Part shown: positions 6,404 through 15,971 of the stretch, piece by piece | Numbering within the stretch: the first letter of the stretch is position 1 | How the letters are laid out: each line of letters begins with the position of its first letter | Source of the DNA: a virus | Lineage: Duplodnaviria > Heunggongvirae > Uroviricota > Caudoviricetes | Virus record (IMG/VR): IMGVR_UViG_2861043448_000001 | Direction: 5' to 3' (one strand) | Length of the DNA: 22,628 nucleotides | Program-made: the position numbers and the translations under genes | Notes under the pieces: model-generated | What the model saw: only the letters and a program-made list of their open reading frames with translations | What the model was told of the DNA's origin: nothing | Databases searched by the model: none

Positions 6404-6427
6404 GTCCGCTTTGTGCCAAGAGCGGAC
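6404..6427 (+). repeat. Palindromic repeat, type H2, copy A (gtccgctttgtgccaagagcggac)
   Basis: 7-bp stem gtccgct/agcggac. Near-identical to the copy at 7620-7643. The flank tttgca...ggggg is also shared with that copy. Confidence 0.8.
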
Positions 6428-6464
6428 TTTGCAAAATGGGGGTTATTTCAATCAAAACGTAACG

Positions 6465-7409
6465 TCACAACCAGCCGACGCTCTCTCGCCATTTATAATT
6501 AGTAACTTTATCATTTTCGCTTATTTTTTTAGATATAGAGCGCGGCTCTCTTCCTAGATACTCAGATATTTCTATCGGGGACAAATCAAAATCAACAAGC
6601 ATGACTCTAAGTTTTTCCATTTCCTTTAAAGTCCAAGGCTTGCCATAATTTTCATAAAGAGATACCTTATGCTCCCTGATAGTTCGCTTTCTCTGAGTTT
6701 CACTTTCCCTCTGAAAAATCTCGCTTTTAAATTGTGAACGGAACTCTTTACAGAAGTTGTTATCAGTTTTTTTGTTATATAGATTGCTAAAAATAAGCTG
6801 GGATGCCGGGTCTAAATCAGGTGTGTTAATAATGAAAACTTTGACCTTTTCCATATAGGGATATTCAATTTTACCCAATATGCTTAATTGCTTTATATTA
6901 AAAAAACCTCTCAAATCAAAAGATTTAATGAGCTTTGATTGGATTACACTTTCAATCCTGCTTGCATTTAAATAACAGTACTTTGCCATTGGAAGGGCCC
7001 ATACTACCAGTTGAGGAATATATTTTTCTAATGCAATGCTCTGCCAATCAGTATCAAAGGTTTGGCTTTTTGCTAGCATGTTTTTCGGCAAATCAGAATA
7101 CATTGTGGTAGATGCCCATATCTTATAATCATTCGCCAAGGCTTGATAGTATTTTGTGTGGTTATGAATTTTATAAGCTGACATGAAGCGATAAACGTCT
7201 TCGTCGTGACCAGCGTCGTAAATTGTTCGATTTCCTCTAAGATAACCGTCGTAATGTTCGGTTATCCTTCTACCTACATTACAACTTACCCCAACGTAAA
7301 CCACACGACTGAAAAGTCCTTTATGGACAATAAGATAAACTCCGCTACAGCCAGATTTCCTGGCCTCTGATAGAGAACCTAAAAATCTCCATTCCATAAT
7401 TAAATCCAT
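6465..7409 (-). CDS. GIY-YIG family nuclease with a C-terminal helix-turn-helix-like domain
   Basis: 314-codon ORF. The N-terminus reads GVYLIV-x9-VVYVGVSCNVGRRITEHY (GIY...YVG...R..H pattern), with a later glutamate in SRIESVIQ. The C-terminus reads PWTLKEMEKLRVML..SPIEISEYLGREPRSISKKI, which looks Myb/HTH-like. The gene is AT-rich. Confidence 0.8.
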   Translation of the reverse strand: MDLIMEWRFLGSLSEARKSGCSGVYLIVHKGLFSRVVYVGVSCNVGRRITEHYDGYLRGNRTIYDAGHDEDVYRFMSAYKIHNHTKYYQALANDYKIWASTTMYSDLPKNMLAKSQTFDTDWQSIALEKYIPQLVVWALPMAKYCYLNASRIESVIQSKLIKSFDLRGFFNIKQLSILGKIEYPYMEKVKVFIINTPDLDPASQLIFSNLYNKKTDNNFCKEFRSQFKSEIFQRESETQRKRTIREHKVSLYENYGKPWTLKEMEKLRVMLVDFDLSPIEISEYLGREPRSISKKISENDKVTNYKWRESVGWL

Positions 7410-7577
7410 AATTATTGCTACTGTTTTTGTTTATCATTATTTTCGTGAAACTTCAACAATTTTATCCAAAAGCTAAGGGCAAAGACTTATATAATTATAC
7501 TTGTCATCGTTAGCGATTATATAGAGTAGTGGCGCTGACCTGCTCCCTGGTGATTCACACAGAATGCTGTTAGTAAT

Positions 7578-7601
7578 GTCCGTTCCTCGCTCTCAGCGGA
7601 C
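7578..7601 (+). repeat. Palindromic repeat, type H1, copy B1 (gtccgttcctcgctctcagcggac)
   Basis: Shares the core tccgtYctcgctc..agcggac with the copy at 11791-11814 (20 of 24 positions) and the copy at 9561-9584 (18 of 24). Confidence 0.75.
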
Positions 7602-7619
7602 CTTCAGCTCAGTGATATC

Positions 7620-7643
7620 GTCCGCTCTGTGCAAAGAGCGGAC
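7620..7643 (+). repeat. Palindromic repeat, type H2, copy B2 (gtccgctctgtgcaaagagcggac)
   Basis: Perfect 9-bp stem with a 6-nt loop. Differs from copy A at two positions. Confidence 0.8.
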
Positions 7644-7956
7644 GTTGGTATGCAAGAGCCCTCCAAAAGTTGATGGTTGGTTTGCAGGGGGGCTTAAAGA
7701 AACTGCACTTATCAAGTTGAAGTTCTGTATTCAGCGAAATCGTAGCACTCTGACGATAAGTAACTCCGGTACTCCGCTCTTCGATGAAGAACCAGAGTAA
7801 TCCCCCCGAAAAACCAGCGCATCAAAATTGGATCTTCAGCGGTAGCTTATCGGCTATCGGAAGTACAGGTGTGGATTCGTGGTGAATTGCTTTGATAATA
7901 AACGATTAATACGGAAAAACGCATTAATCATTTATTAGCTTTTAGTAAACCACAAT

Positions 7957-9306
7957 TTATTCCGTTTTACATATCATAGTAGTCGATTGGAGAATATAGT
8001 TTCTGGGAATGTACTCTTCAAAGTGTTCGTCCTTTTTAAATACATGAACTACATTTGGGAATAATTGATAGTCAACAGGGTGTATAGCGTTTGGATTATG
8101 GTACATGTACATGGCTGTACACCATGGTTCTTGATAGTTAGGGTCACTTACATCGGCTGAAAATGGATGTGGGGCTGCATCCTGATCAGTTTTAACACCA
8201 CTGACGTACACTTTGAATCCACTCGCCTCTACACCTGCAAGAATTCCCATCCGGTTAAACTTAGGTATGGTTGCTTGAGTAGTGAGTAAAACGGCAGAAA
8301 CATAATTATTTTGTTCTGAGCCAAAAAAGTTCGACTTGATACTTCTATTTTCATCTGTATGTCTTTCAATAGAAATGCCTGACTCAATATCAATCCCGTA
8401 CAAATAGCTATGCAAGGCTTCGCTTGAGAAGGCCATGGACATTCTTTTTGAATAATCCTGCATTGCTATGACAAATGGTTTGTTCTTTGTATGGTTGAGT
8501 TCCCAGTAATGAACTTTCTCTGGCTCAGGGCAATGCCGGACTTTTTTTAATAAACTTCTTGCAAACTTAAAAGGCATGACATTTAGAACATGTTTTCTTA
8601 ATTCATCCATCTGTTCATCGTTAATGACTTTTCTTTCAAGAGGGGCTTCTGCTTCAGCAATGCTTACAGCCTCTACAGCAATTTCCACTCCAAATTTAGA
8701 TAGCAGAAAATCTGGTTGATTGTATTCTCTATTCATTTCAAAGTCGAGTTCATAAAATACAGCGTTCAAATATAATTCAAATAACCTTGAATTAAATGCA
8801 TCACTTTGAAAATCCCTTATAAATATTCCATCAGGATCTTTGAACCAGTATGCAAGTTCCTCAAGAACAATATATGCAGGGAAATGAAGAGGGTCTTCGA
8901 GGAGCATTTTTATATAAACATTCCTTTTTTTCGCTGGGACCTTACTCAAGAATAATGAAAAAGGTTTGGTTGATTCATCGCCTTGCATGAATGTACCATT
9001 TTGGTGCTGCGCCAGCATCTTTGGTATGTCATCGTTCAAATTATTAAGCAAGACATCCATTGAATCAAATGAAGCCAAGACGTTTATTGCTCTGAATTTT
9101 TTATCTAAATCCCGACCTAAGACTATTGCGTTAAAATCTTTATCAATATTGCATATGATTATTGTGGATAACAATGTTATCCCATTCCCCTCATATTTAA
9201 ACCAGCGTATCTCCTCAGAAAATGTCTTAAGGTAAGGTGAGCGACCGTAAAAATAAATATCAAATTGTTCTTTGCTGATCTCACTGAAGTGTAATCCTGC
9301 GTTCAT
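7957..9306 (-). CDS. Orphan 449-aa protein; a possible degenerate PD-(D/E)xK-like core; function unknown
   Basis: Long AT-rich ORF with aagga 8 nt upstream of its ATG. The segment FELYLNAVF...NQPDFLLSKFGVEIAVEAVS resembles a helix-E / PD / ExE arrangement but lacks a clear lysine. I recognise no other motif. Confidence 0.75.
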   Translation of the reverse strand: MNAGLHFSEISKEQFDIYFYGRSPYLKTFSEEIRWFKYEGNGITLLSTIIICNIDKDFNAIVLGRDLDKKFRAINVLASFDSMDVLLNNLNDDIPKMLAQHQNGTFMQGDESTKPFSLFLSKVPAKKRNVYIKMLLEDPLHFPAYIVLEELAYWFKDPDGIFIRDFQSDAFNSRLFELYLNAVFYELDFEMNREYNQPDFLLSKFGVEIAVEAVSIAEAEAPLERKVINDEQMDELRKHVLNVMPFKFARSLLKKVRHCPEPEKVHYWELNHTKNKPFVIAMQDYSKRMSMAFSSEALHSYLYGIDIESGISIERHTDENRSIKSNFFGSEQNNYVSAVLLTTQATIPKFNRMGILAGVEASGFKVYVSGVKTDQDAAPHPFSADVSDPNYQEPWCTAMYMYHNPNAIHPVDYQLFPNVVHVFKKDEHFEEYIPRNYILQSTTMICKTE

Positions 9307-9428
9307 ACCAATTCCTTTTCAATGAATAATTGGCCTTTAGGAGTGATTCCCTTTGTCTTTAATTCAGTTCTAACTAGTTCTTTAATCCAATAGCCTAAGC
9401 TCATCATGCAGTTGGATCATAAGACAAC

Positions 9429-9457
9429 GCCCTATAGTGCTCGTGATACTATAGGGC
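9429..9457. repeat. Perfect 10-bp inverted repeat with a 9-nt spacer (gccctatagt-N9-actatagggc)
   Basis: Read directly from the sequence. It lies between the divergent 449-aa gene and the recombinase gene. No T-run follows on either strand. Confidence 0.7.
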
Positions 9458-9560
9458 ATCTGACCACACTGTTAACTGGAGTAACGACTATGGCAGGAAT
9501 ACAGCATAACCAAACTCACCCCAAACTTACATAGCGCTTTCTGGCCGTGAGCATAACAAG

Positions 9561-9584
9561 GTCCACTCCTCGCTCATAAGGGAC
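9561..9584 (+). repeat. Palindromic repeat, type H1, degenerate copy D (gtccactcctcgctcataagggac)
   Basis: Keeps the termini gtcc...ggac and the core tcctcgctc. The palindrome is weakened to 4 bp. Confidence 0.6.
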
Positions 9585-9587
9585 AAC

Positions 9588-9626
9588 CATACTCAAATCT
9601 CCCACATTGCAGGAGATTTGAGTATG
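9588..9626 (+). promoter_or_regulatory. Perfect 15-bp inverted repeat (catactcaaatctcc-N9-ggagatttgagtatg) enclosing the recombinase SD and ATG
   Basis: The right arm contains GGAG (9612-9615) and the ATG at 9624-9626. It could be an RBS-sequestering hairpin in read-through transcripts, or a lox/FRT-style core site. Confidence 0.65.
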
Positions 9627-10226
9627 AACACGTCACCGTGGAACAAAGACCGTATCATAGGCCAAAAAAGACCACTTCAGATATCTCATATCTGGGGTAT
9701 CCGAATCCGACTTGAACTGGAAGGTAAAACTCGCGATTTAGCTCTGTTCAACATGGCCCTGGATAGTAAGCTTCGAGGCTGTGATCTGGTCAAACTCAAA
9801 GTATCTGATGTTGCATATGGTGGCTCTGTTTCAAGCAGAGCAACGGTGTTGCAACAGAAAACCGGTAGCCCTGTTCAATTTGAGATAACCAAAGGGACAA
9901 GAGAAGCTGTTGCTGCATTGATACAGCTTAGCAATTTGCACAGTAAAGACTTCTTGTTTCGGTCTAGGGTCGGAACTAACCAGCACATTTCAACCCGGCA
10001 ATACAACCGAATCTTTCATGGGGGGGTAGAAAAGCTTGGTCTCGAAGATTCGCTTTACAGCACACATTCCATGAGAAGAACAAAACCTTACCTGATCTAC
10101 AAGAAAACCAAGAATCTCCGGGTGATCCAACTTCTGTTGGGTCATAAGAAACTGGAAAGCACAGTCCGTTATCTGGGCATTGAAGTCGATGATGCGTTAG
10201 AGATTTCTGAATCGATTGAAGTCTAA
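9624..10226 (+). CDS. Mini tyrosine recombinase (catalytic domain only, ~200 aa)
   Basis: Catalytic signature occurs in order: DSKLRGCDL (R), LQQKTG (K), HSMRRT (HxxR), LLGHKK (H), VRYLG (Y). The ATG at 9624 sits 8 nt after aggag. The track start at 9618 is a TTG. Confidence 0.85.
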   Translation: MNTSPWNKDRIIGQKRPLQISHIWGIRIRLELEGKTRDLALFNMALDSKLRGCDLVKLKVSDVAYGGSVSSRATVLQQKTGSPVQFEITKGTREAVAALIQLSNLHSKDFLFRSRVGTNQHISTRQYNRIFHGGVEKLGLEDSLYSTHSMRRTKPYLIYKKTKNLRVIQLLLGHKKLESTVRYLGIEVDDALEISESIEV

Positions 10227-10232
10227 GGTTGT

Positions 10233-10254
10233 CAGGGCTGCAACAGCAGCCCTG
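10233..10254 (+). terminator. GC-rich hairpin after the recombinase gene (cagggctgc-aaca-gcagccctg); no T-run
   Basis: 9-bp perfect stem beginning 7 nt after the stop codon. The lack of a U-tract makes intrinsic termination uncertain. Confidence 0.3.
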
Positions 10255-10585
10255 TGCCATAAGCGGAAGTATTTAACAACTATCAGTGTTGTTCAACAGA
10301 TAAAGGGGCACTTGATTTTTTCTGTTCTCAGGAAATGATAAAAGCGCGTCGGTTCAAGCCTGCTTAACGGGAGTTTGTTAATCCTGTTGCCGTGACGTTT
10401 TGACACCATTATGATGGGGAGACACTTAATGTATGAAGGTTCCGCCACTTATACCTGTCCAACAACTGCCTCGGATGTTTCTTTGTATGAATAAGTGGTA
10501 ATGAGTAGTGAATCGCTAACAGTCACCCGAACAATCGGTGCCTGCAATTAATTCTATATTCTAAACGAGGGGGAGATTATTACAC

Positions 10586-11566
10586 ATGAAATTTAAGGAC
10601 AAGAACCTTAAGGCTCTCGCGGAATGTATCATAGGAGATAATAAGGCATTTCTGTATCGTTCAAGCAGTCACATCACTGAATTTTTCCAGGACTGCGGCA
10701 TGGATGTTACTCATGACGGATCCACTCGGTGGAAATGGACGGCCCAGAGGCTTGAAGAACTTCTTTATGAGCCACAGTCAAAGCCACATACTTTGCCGGA
10801 AAGGTTTGTTCATGTGCTCAGAACTTTAATGTTAAAAGAAGATGCAATGGATGACGATCCAGGAAGATTAAAGGCGCTTGAAGAACTGAACAAGCCTTTG
10901 ATGCGGGAAGGCTATGAGGCATTCTATGGTGACGATCGCCTTTTGTATATACGCCATACCGATACCAAAACGGTTTCAGTCAGTAATAACCCTCATCGGC
11001 CCTTAACGCCTCACGAAGTAGAATGCAGAAGGTTACTGACCGCGTTTCTTGATACCTGCTCAGAAGATGAGTTAATAGAAGATATTCTCCTTCCTTTATT
11101 CCGGCAACTTGGTTTTCACCGGATAACAGCAGTGGGACATAAAGATAAAGCGCTGGAATACGGGAAAGACATCTGGATGAAGTTCACACTGCCAACTCAG
11201 CATGTTCTTTATTTCGGCATTCAGGCAAAAAAAGGTAAGTTGGATGCGTCCGGTGCCAGCAAATCTACGAATTCAAACGTGGCAGAAATCTTCAACCAGG
11301 TACTGATGATGCTTGGCCATGAAATATTTGACCCAGAAACAAATAGAAAGGTGCTGGTAGATCATGCCTTTATCGTTGCTGGCGGAGAAATTACTAAACA
11401 GGCGAGGAACTGGCTGGGCGGGAAACTTGATGCCAGCAAAAGAAGCCAGATAATATTTATGGACCGGGAAGACATTCTTAATTTATATACTGTAAGTAAT
11501 GTACCTCTGCCAACAGGTGCTCTCATCTCTGATGATGCCGTTAAGAACGATGATATTCCTTTCTAA
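10586..11566 (+). CDS. Two-domain protein: unknown N-terminal domain plus C-terminal Mrr-like restriction-endonuclease-fold (D...QxK) domain
   Basis: 326-codon ORF with a gagggggag SD. The C-terminal half reads ELIEDILLPLFRQLGFHRITAVGH..EYGKDIWMKF..LYFGIQAKKGK...AFIVAGGEITKQA. This matches the Mrr_cat layout of helix, G-x-D-I, then (Q/E)xK. Confidence 0.75.
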   Translation: MKFKDKNLKALAECIIGDNKAFLYRSSSHITEFFQDCGMDVTHDGSTRWKWTAQRLEELLYEPQSKPHTLPERFVHVLRTLMLKEDAMDDDPGRLKALEELNKPLMREGYEAFYGDDRLLYIRHTDTKTVSVSNNPHRPLTPHEVECRRLLTAFLDTCSEDELIEDILLPLFRQLGFHRITAVGHKDKALEYGKDIWMKFTLPTQHVLYFGIQAKKGKLDASGASKSTNSNVAEIFNQVLMMLGHEIFDPETNRKVLVDHAFIVAGGEITKQARNWLGGKLDASKRSQIIFMDREDILNLYTVSNVPLPTGALISDDAVKNDDIPF

Positions 11567-11790
11567 TCAGAAGTACGTCTTTTTCTGAAAGAATACGTGA
11601 TAGGTAGCCACACCACACCTTTAGTGACCCCTTAATCTGGTAATATAACAGCCCGTATGAATGTCCGCGGCATCGCGGGCTGAAATTTATTAAAAATACT
11701 TATTCATCAAGCTGGAGTAGTTTGCCGAGTAACTGTAAACGCCCAACTTAACCGGACCATTCACTTTTAGATTGCTACCAGCAAACCAAC

Positions 11791-11814
11791 TTCCGTTTCT
11801 CGCTCAAAGCGGAC
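11791..11814 (+). repeat. Palindromic repeat, type H1, copy C (ttccgtttctcgctcaaagcggac)
   Basis: 20 of 24 positions match copy B1. Same orientation. It lies at the right edge of the island. Confidence 0.7.
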
Positions 11815-11993
11815 TAGAAGGTTAGCTTGCGTCGGACTTGGCGTATTTAAAGAAGTGCTGGTGGTAACTGGTTGTTGTGTTCCATTTCTACAAAACAAAA
11901 TCACAGAAACTATACCCAATAGTTATATTGAATCAATGATGAGACAGCCTCATATTTATCAGAACTGGTGTACGTCCAATACAGGAGGTTGTC

Positions 11994-12083
11994 GTGCTGG
12001 TTCTCAAATATGCGCTAGCTATTGCGGCTGTAATGGCAATTTATTGTCTTGCTATTGTTCTTACGGATCGCCTTTCTGATTGA
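11994..12083 (+). CDS. 29-codon hydrophobic peptide ORF (MLVLKYALAIAAVMAIYCLAIVLTDRLSD); candidate small membrane or toxin-like peptide
   Basis: GTG start 5 nt after a strong aggagg at 11983-11988. Predicted single TM helix with a charged tail. Too short for the six-frame track. It overlaps the Cys-rich 74-aa track ORF in another frame. Confidence 0.4.
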   Translation: MLVLKYALAIAAVMAIYCLAIVLTDRLSD

Positions 12084-12119: not shown

Positions 12120-12171
12120 TGCTGCGGGTGCTTGAGGCTATCTGCCTCAGGCATGAACACCAAAGGCAGAT

Positions 12172-12246
12172 AGAGAAAAGCCCCAGTTAACATTACGCGT
12201 CCTGCAAGACGTTTAACATTAATCTGAGGCTCAATCTATGAACGGC
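12172..12246 (-). ncRNA. sok: Sok-like antisense RNA of the hok locus (ends approximate)
   Basis: The minus strand has TTGCCT-17 nt-TAACCT (plus-strand coordinates 12281-12276 and 12258-12253). The predicted transcript covers the mok start region and folds into a long imperfect hairpin ending ctggggcuuuucucu. This matches the R1 hok/sok layout. Confidence 0.5.
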
Positions 12247-12450
12247 AAATCTAGGTTAGCCTCTTACGTGCCGAAAGGCAAGGAGAAGCAGGCTATGAAG
12301 CAGCAAAAGGCGATGTTAATCGCCCTGATCGTCATCTGTTTAACCGTCATAATGACGGCACTGGTAACGAGGAAAGACCTCTGCGAGGTACGAATCCGAA
12401 CCGGCCAGACGGAGGTCGCTGTCTTCACAGCTTACGAACCTGAGGAGTAA
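12238..12450 (+). CDS. mok: Mok-like reading frame (in-frame N-terminal extension of Hok)
   Basis: 70-codon ORF containing the Hok sequence, as in the chromosomal mokC/hokC arrangement. Confidence 0.6.
   Translation: MNGKSRLASYVPKGKEKQAMKQQKAMLIALIVICLTVIMTALVTRKDLCEVRIRTGQTEVAVFTAYEPEE
12295..12450 (+). CDS. hokD: Hok/Gef family type I toxin (closest to my recollection of HokD/RelF)
   Basis: MKQQKAMLIALIVICLTVIMTALVTRKDLCEVRIRTGQTEVAVFTAYEPEE is the classic Hok signature. An aggag SD lies at 12281-12285. Confidence 0.9.
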   Translation: MKQQKAMLIALIVICLTVIMTALVTRKDLCEVRIRTGQTEVAVFTAYEPEE

Positions 12451-15661: not shown

Positions 15662-15737
15662 GGCCCTTTAGCTCAGTGGTGAGAGCGAGCGACTCATAAT
15701 CGACAGGTCGCTGGGTCAAATCCAGCAAGGGCCACCA
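15662..15737 (+). tRNA. tRNA with CAU anticodon, ileX/ileZ-like (Ile2 or Met); weakened anticodon stem and unusual T-loop
   Basis: Cloverleaf fits: acceptor GGCCCTT/AAGGGCC, D-arm GCTC..GAGC, loop CTCATAA, encoded CCA. However, 27:43 and 28:42 are mismatched and the T-loop starts with G (GTCAAAT). Confidence 0.6.
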
Positions 15738-15738
15738 A

Positions 15739-15815
15739 CCGTCACCAGTTCATCAGGAAAGAGCGTCAACCCTTTAAGTTGAGTGTGCGAGGTTCGAGTC
15801 CCCGGTGGCGGTCCA
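15739..15815 (+). tRNA. tRNA-like gene, anticodon loop CCTTTAA (nominally Lys-UUU with C33); possibly a pseudo-tRNA
   Basis: Acceptor CCGTCAC/GTGGCGG with one G-U pair. T-loop TTCGAGT, with one T-stem mismatch. C replaces the near-universal U33. CCA is encoded. Confidence 0.45.
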
Positions 15816-15817
15816 GT

Positions 15818-15893
<76 letters not shown>

Positions 15894-15896
15894 TAT

Positions 15897-15971
<75 letters not shown>

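Follow-up and report, generated by a model that had tools for sequence, protein, structure and literature searches.

We analyzed a 22,628-nucleotide (nt) stretch of viral DNA (Caudoviricetes; IMG/VR record IMGVR_UViG_2861043448_000001), hereafter the window, which is a defective Qin-like lambdoid prophage of Escherichia coli adjoining rspAB/ynfA. Within it lies an open reading frame (ORF) for a 326-amino-acid (aa) protein, WP_023147794.1, which bears the NCBI/RefSeq label “hypothetical protein” and whose gene, here called the nuclease gene, follows that of a small tyrosine recombinase. As judged from sequence and structural models, the protein is a restriction-fold nuclease with a new N-terminal domain and a tail like the C-terminal tip of SSB, a single-stranded DNA-binding protein. 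The features of the locus are collected in Table 1.

Table 1. Features of the nuclease gene, its protein product, and the surrounding cassette (window coordinates, except for the last row, which gives positions in three plasmid loci)
Feature	Coordinates	Strand	Remarks
Left recombination site, type B	9558..9584	.	Hybrid: left half phage, right half element; crossover in CTCGCTCA
Tyrosine recombinase, 200 aa, catalytic domain alone	9624..10226	+	NCBI start ATG 9624
Degenerate type-A half-site A′	10246..10273 (approx.)	.	Just 3′ of the recombinase stop codon
Promoter-like hexamers TTGCCG-17-TATGAT	10387..10415	+	In the 360-bp spacer; weak evidence
Shine-Dalgarno-like GAGGGGGAG before the nuclease ATG	10567..10577	+	Read off the sequence
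326-aa ORF, WP_023147794.1	10586..11566	+	ATG start; stop codon inside coordinates
Family-specific N-terminal domain, residues 1-134	10586..10987	+	Five helices and a beta-hairpin
Interdomain linker motif NPHRP(L/F)TP, residues 135-142	10988..11011	+	Conserved; segment of low model confidence
PD-(D/E)xK nuclease domain, residues ~150-305	11033..11500	+	Fold and invariant motif
Putative catalytic residues	E160/D161; D195, 11168-11170; Q213, 11222-11224; K215, 11228-11230	+	
Variable, predicted disordered linker, residues 306-320	11501..11545	+	Model confidence and variable columns
C-terminal tip NDDIPF (family consensus DDDIPF)	11546..11563	+	Same form as the C-terminal tip of SSB
Right recombination site, type B	11788..11814	.	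Hybrid: left half element, right half phage
Empty site as it would be restored			GGTCCACTCCTCGCTCAAAGCGGAC
IncF plasmid stretches with vapBC and nuclease gene	L011, 6218-7994; L012, 6250-8013; L013, 6231-7994		

Domain structure of the 326-aa protein

The ORF claimed in a preliminary description of this DNA proved to be real, with an ATG start, a length of 326 aa, a ribosome-binding site (GGGGGAG, 8-14 nt 5′ of the ATG), and homologues. It is not a chance reading frame: we counted 3877 homologues at E ≤ 1e-3 and 971 cluster representatives, and a one-genome-per-species collection (185,579 species) yielded 409 confirmed matches; conservation of M1 and the N terminus across homologues indicates that the start codon is right. 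The motifs quoted in that description could also be placed: residues 168-177 are LLPLFRQLGF, residues 193-197 GKDIW, and residues 211-218 GIQAKKGK. The family occurs in many phyla yet is uncharacterized, with no entry in Pfam, NCBIfam, PHROGs, or PADLOC. The literature searched contained nothing on its protein accessions, PDB sequences searched with the 326-aa protein gave zero matches, and a PDB profile search returned a spurious ribosomal-protein match alone (E = 0.006).

An AlphaFold2 model of the full protein, built from 39 sequences and with a mean predicted local distance difference test score (pLDDT) of 81, contains the alpha-beta-beta-beta-alpha-beta core of the PD-(D/E)xK superfamily, with an acidic residue on the first helix, another at the second strand, and QxK on the third. 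E160 and D161 open helix 160-174, D195 directly precedes strand 196-201, and strand 207-215 bears Q213 and K215; all five residues are invariant in the 39 aligned sequences, including relatives only 24-28% identical. These observations support assignment of the C-terminal half to a PD-(D/E)xK nuclease fold of the Mrr/MspJI-like kind with D...QxK, which would be expected to cleave DNA. The preliminary description had proposed an Mrr-like D...QxK endonuclease and named fold prediction as one of its checks. The model supports a PD-(D/E)xK domain, and the proposal holds at the level of fold and motif (invariant D195, Q213, and K215) but not as formal membership in Mrr_cat. Mrr_cat (PF04471) gave zero match to the window protein at E ≤ 1, and among divergent relatives P0140, P0152, and P0257 scored 18.4, 14.7, and 14.0 bits against a gathering threshold of 21 bits, with the 18.4-bit match spanning profile positions 4-112 of 115. 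Compared with Mrr and other Mrr_cat proteins, including AF1548, the LlaBIII nuclease domain, and the Avs4 effector domain, the window protein has a different N-terminal domain and an added tail.

The closest structural matches of the nuclease domain were the modification-dependent enzymes AspBHI and MspJI, at a sequence identity of 11-12%. These matches, together with the D...QxK motif and the occurrence of the gene alone, without a methyltransferase, in variable mobile contexts, are what an ordinary Type IV modification-dependent enzyme would show, in which the N-terminal domain reads a modification, the MspJI-like domain cuts, and the tip is incidental or serves stability or oligomerization. 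MspJI and AspBHI, however, carry an SRA-like N-terminal domain that reads 5-methylcytosine and lack an SSB-type tail, whereas the N-terminal domain of the window protein is helical and without a structural match, and we found no SRA-like or winged-helix reader of modified DNA in this protein. We consider a Type IV enzyme of this ordinary kind unlikely. Shedu (SduA) and similar single-protein immune nucleases are further removed, with no PADLOC or Pfam match and a structural match weaker than that to Type IV enzymes.

Modeled separately, residues 1-148 gave a pLDDT of 87.6 and a predicted template modeling score of 0.82, and the N-terminal domain contains the invariant motifs GD, F.YRSS, FF, and HDGSTRW; in the linker that follows it, P136, H137, R138, P139, and T141 are likewise invariant. 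A search of the 148-residue model against solved and viral structures gave zero match, in line with the earlier statement that this half of the protein is unassigned. The accompanying suggestion that it is a sensor was a guess, and such a role is plausible but unsupported: among the 150 cluster representatives listed, the domain is confined to its own family and fused to no other effector, the apparent fusions among them being frameshifted fragments.

The nuclease core also occurs with other N-terminal domains. The distant relatives P0235, P0240, P0257, P0258, and P0268 (24-28% identity) keep the core and all catalytic residues but have unrelated N-terminal domains of ~150 aa and basic C termini without an SSB-type tip. 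In one distant relative, an SLFN_AlbA_2 domain is joined to the same core, a sensor-swapping pattern that is typical of immune nucleases and that we count in favor of an immune role.

The pLDDT of the full model drops from 77 at residues 301-310 to 48 at residues 311-320 and stays below 50 over residues 315-326, and alignment columns 311-323 are variable. Beyond this segment the sequence is constrained again. Among 191 distinct members of full length, the last three residues fit [ILVMFYC]PF in 178, position -5 is D in 168, and position -4 is D or E in 175; the acidic pair before the [ILVMFYC]PF ending is present in 166, and 38 end in FDDDIPF. The family thus presents a predicted disordered linker and an acidic tip like those of an SSB. 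The tip is retained in members of 38-59% identity and absent from relatives with a different N-terminal domain. Only 1 of 792 neighboring ORFs has an SSB-type ending. A 179-aa ORF in a Blastocatellia genome (L044, 905-1444, minus strand), which lies ~5 kb from a nuclease homologue and does not look like an SSB, ends in ...PPDDEMPF; further proteins of such islands may thus share this kind of ending.

In E. coli, SSB itself terminates in DDDIPF, a tip on which more than a dozen genome-maintenance proteins dock (PMC5872125, PMC4137731). The nuclease family shares the form of this tip, including a variable, predicted disordered linker before it. We detected no OB-fold or SSB match in Pfam, NCBIfam, or PDB, and the protein, having no OB fold, is not itself an SSB. 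We also searched the literature for mimics of the SSB tip and for SSB-tailed defense proteins and found no non-SSB carrier. A beta-clamp-binding motif follows the pattern Qxx(L/M)xF, which is absent from the tail, and we rejected this candidate. NucS/EndoMS, a PD-(D/E)xK nuclease of housekeeping mismatch repair, is attached to the sliding clamp through a peptide at its C terminus; it differs from the window protein in its hub (the clamp there, the SSB interactome here), in its N-terminal domain, and in its role.

Conservation and genomic contexts of the family

Homologues 62-75% identical over their full length were found in Cyanobacteria, Planctomycetes, Acidobacteria, Verrucomicrobia, Synergistota, Bacteroidales, and many Proteobacteria. 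Taken over all comparisons between phyla, identity ranges from 62 to 90%. In comparisons with homologues from other phyla, synonymous sites were saturated (proportion of synonymous differences, 0.79-0.94), while nonsynonymous divergence (dN) was 0.16-0.31, which indicates old, strong purifying selection rather than recent transfer. Such extreme constraint across phyla fits what is expected of a protein that contacts conserved host machinery.

Very strong, long-term purifying selection over the full length is also what a repair, recombination, or replication-restart accessory nuclease would show, one that acts on particular DNA structures inside the SSB hub to the benefit of the element or the host. 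The SSB-type tail, the presence of RusA and other recombination genes in the same prophage, and the lack of a PADLOC model for the nuclease are in keeping with such a role. Its distribution is sporadic, however, given that the 409 confirmed matches among 185,579 species always lie in variable accessory regions; its neighbors are defense and mobility genes and not repair operons, and its nearest folds are restriction and defense effectors and not resolvases. For these reasons we regard an accessory role in DNA repair, recombination, or replication restart as improbable.

Across 79 species-level loci we found no conserved neighbor of the nuclease gene and, at the species loci examined, no conserved methyltransferase neighbor. 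A raw listing of direct neighbors contains subunits of type I restriction systems, integrases, resolvases, GajB, AriA, DRT6, PD-T4-3, and mad3. The gene was found without the recombinase at the 79 species loci and on the IncF plasmids examined. A 3-kb query matched 702 plasmid records, with the nuclease gene covered in the matches listed, and hundreds of IncF plasmids from clinical Klebsiella and E. coli carry the gene. Phages are rare carriers: tblastn against 50,697 phage genomes did not find the nuclease, and among 2.9 million viral contigs only 22 contained it, six of them representing the prophage described here.

On three IncF plasmids, from Klebsiella, E. albertii, and E. coli, the nuclease homologue lies ~140-160 bp 3′ of vapBC, and in two of the three a 1572-nt AAA-ATPase gene is convergent on its other side. 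We considered a leading-region anti-defense gene and rejected it: the copy on pCFSAN001010 does have ardA, DUF1380, and methylase genes around it, yet it is oriented opposite to them and sits beside an IS110, and other IncF copies sit by vapBC and other maintenance genes. In Vibrio (L004-L009, gene at 8001-8981), an identical protein is encoded by the terminal gene of an island whose other products include unknown proteins of 301 and 429 aa, an NA37 nucleoid-associated protein, a helix-turn-helix regulator, and HipA; this island occupies at least three different chromosomal sites.

The position directly 3′ of vapBC on three different IncF plasmids, combined with a tail of the same form as the C-terminal tip of SSB, would suit a toxin, addiction, or interference factor that titrates SSB-interacting proteins by means of a decoy tail and that the plasmid VapBC might restrain. 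We think this very unlikely, as vapBC is absent from the window, from Vibrio, and from most other loci, no conserved antitoxin or immunity neighbor accompanies the gene at the 79 species loci, and the catalytic residues are invariant, which argues that catalysis matters.

The recombinase and its cassettes

The recombinase matches Pfam Phage_integrase (2e-17), and an ORF finder places it at 9618-10226 on the plus strand. The nuclease gene, previously described as directly downstream, is indeed co-oriented with it and downstream, but a 360-bp gap makes this wording only loosely correct. A Salmonella plasmid match takes in ~340 bp upstream of the nuclease gene. Phage mEp460_ev081 has the same order of DUF977, PD-T7-1, and hok without the recombinase and the nuclease, and its empty site consists of GGTCCACTCCTCGCTCA followed directly by AAGCGGACTAGAAGG. 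Alignment of the junctions with this phage put the crossover within the CTCGCTCA core; the left junction runs on into recombinase-module sequence, and at the right junction element sequence is followed by phage sequence. The empty-site junctions therefore show that a 2.2-kb unit of site, recombinase, and nuclease entered by site-specific recombination.

The preliminary description had envisaged a repeat-bounded recombinase-nuclease cassette and made co-occurrence of the two genes elsewhere one of its tests. Insertion as one 2.2-kb unit agrees with this, but a conserved functional pair does not: in a survey of co-occurrence, the genes were not together outside one E. coli lineage, a result that counts against their pairing. 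Among 5426 complete E. coli genomes, ~975 contain the recombinase, and ~800 of the 5426 carry it (92-95% amino-acid identity) without the nuclease. Three nuclease-free recombinase loci have a DUF4145, ETEC_3214, or CBS-domain gene as cargo, followed by the same sites. Identity between recombinase loci ends at A′, which marks this half-site as the point of cargo exchange. No recombinase homologue was found near nuclease homologues in the 79 species loci, on plasmids, or in Vibrio. The recombinase with other cargo and the nuclease elsewhere without the recombinase together indicate that the nuclease is an exchangeable cargo. That the nuclease instead works together with the recombinase, such as by aiding cleavage or setting direction when cassettes move, might be read from the co-orientation of the genes and their insertion as one unit between hybrid junctions; set against the other cargo in ~800 genomes, the lack of a recombinase near nuclease homologues, and the end of locus-to-locus identity at a site between both genes, this idea is largely refuted and has very little probability left.

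The 2.2-kb unit lies in an integron-like array (window 6404-11814; also seen at loci L094, L095, and L096), in which single-gene cassettes are separated by imperfect palindromes of ~24 bp. Sites were placed at 6404-6431, 7575-7601, 7620-7647, 9558-9584, ~10246-10273, and 11788-11814, and are of two mutually inverted types, type A being GTCCGCTYTGTGCMAAGAGCGGAC and type B approximating the reverse complement of A. The 200-aa recombinase sits inside one junction of the array. Single-gene cassettes, imperfect palindromic sites, a tyrosine recombinase, and defense cargo are shared with integrons, but the ~24-bp palindromes are not attC sites, the recombinase lies inside the array, and its scores of 17.5 and 17.2 bits stand far below the integron-integrase (IntI) cutoffs of 435 and 265. 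Pairing of B and A sites as one long attC-like hairpin was rejected, as folding gave two separate hairpins. We found no description of this cassette system in the literature searched.

Two other cassettes of the array were noted. The gene at 7957-9306 (minus strand), with a 449-aa product, is PD-T7-1 (PADLOC, 7e-157; phrog_8571, 5e-120), a validated antiphage defense system (Vassallo et al. 2022; PMC9519451), and it lies in its own A...B cassette, which is present in phage mEp460_ev081 as well. The nuclease gene is its neighbor in the window, and we count this setting, like the defense genes close to nuclease homologues elsewhere, in favor of a defense role. The gene at 6465-7409 (minus strand) encodes a 314-aa hypothetical protein, WP_001678528.1, with a weak N-terminal GIY-YIG match (E = 0.017); it is a candidate defense gene, and its cassette (6432-7619) is absent from phage mEp460_ev081.

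A 6.4-kb stretch around the nuclease gene is 100% identical in ~180 complete E. coli genomes, including strain 042. The prophage has genes for an integrase, an excisionase, and an exonuclease, together with dicB, ydfD, DUF977, hokD/sok, rem, DUF968, rusA, Q, and three tRNAs, and it is defective because its lysis and tail genes are truncated pseudogenes. Directly right of the array, 12126-12450 (plus strand) contains the toxin ORF hokD/mok together with sok, an antisense RNA (Rfam RF01794, 111.7 bits). A 74-aa GTG-start ORF (11855-12079, plus strand), placed between sok and the right site, has a cysteine-rich C-terminal half (...CRAGSQICASYCGCNGNLLSCYCSYGSPF); neither RefSeq nor the phage record annotates it, and it may be no true gene. 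The tRNA genes (15662-15968, plus strand; annotated Ile, Thr, and Gly) lie downstream of the Q antiterminator, and the lysis and tail pseudogenes follow beyond them.

A possible link between a mobile nuclease and the SSB hub

We favor, at a probability of roughly 0.45, the explanation that the protein is a stand-alone mobile nuclease for defense or exclusion, with a link to the SSB interaction hub. It would be a single-gene endonuclease of three parts: an N-terminal helical domain, presumably a specificity or regulatory module; a catalytic domain resembling Mrr, MspJI, and FokI, in which E160/D161, D195, and Q213-x-K215 are the putative metal-binding and catalytic residues; and a disordered linker ending in an acidic-IPF tip, which may copy the SSB tip and so plug the nuclease into the SSB hub. 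It is carried by plasmids, genomic islands, and occasional prophages and has neither a cognate methyltransferase nor an immunity partner. Its tail might engage the usual binders of the SSB tip (ExoI, RecQ, RecJ, PriA, the chi subunit, and others), and cleavage would then be targeted to, or followed up at, foreign DNA that is replicating or rich in single-stranded DNA (ssDNA). Alternatively, the tail may be a cis-inhibitory pseudo-ligand that is displaced once SSB-coated ssDNA accumulates. In the window, its gene is cargo: a repeat-delimited cassette brought it, along with a small tyrosine recombinase, into a defense hotspot of the defective Qin-like prophage.

Several points weigh against this explanation. 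Zero matches were found between the 326-aa protein and the models of Pfam, NCBIfam, PADLOC, and PHROGs, with 0 families at E ≤ 1 in PADLOC-DB 2.0.0. Most neighbors at nuclease loci are unrelated genes, and the association with defense genes is an apparent one. Conservation so strong and so ancient is unusual for defense proteins, and a DNA-metabolism accessory factor would fit it equally well. We found no characterized precedent for a protein bearing the SSB tip rather than the pocket that receives it, which leaves the mechanism to analogy. Finally, the AlphaFold2 model leaves the tail undocked and lends no support to an interaction in cis.

A bolder version, which we hold to be doubtful, is that of an immune or exclusion nuclease of a new kind, wired to the SSB hub through a decoy SSB tip. 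The N-terminal domain would here be a receptor for the SSB tip, held closed by the protein's own tail, and arrays of SSB tips on ssDNA, as formed in phage replication, on rolling-circle plasmids, or on conjugative DNA, would displace the tail and lead to recruitment and cleavage. In another form of this version, the tail of the DNA-bound enzyme would recruit ExoI, RecJ, or RecQ, and the cut DNA would be destroyed. Were this version true, an invader would be sensed through a universal host replication intermediate and not through sequence, modification, or a phage protein.

The preliminary description had overlooked the SSB-like tip, the extreme conservation across phyla, and the degenerate A′ cargo-exchange site. 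The setting of the nuclease gene exposes an E. coli cassette system in which a 200-aa recombinase and palindromic sites are associated with validated and candidate defense cargo; about one in six complete E. coli genomes has this system. If its tail is functional, the nuclease would be the first non-SSB protein found in the literature searched to carry the SSB interaction tip, and a restriction-fold nuclease would be tied directly to the bacterial genome-maintenance hub.
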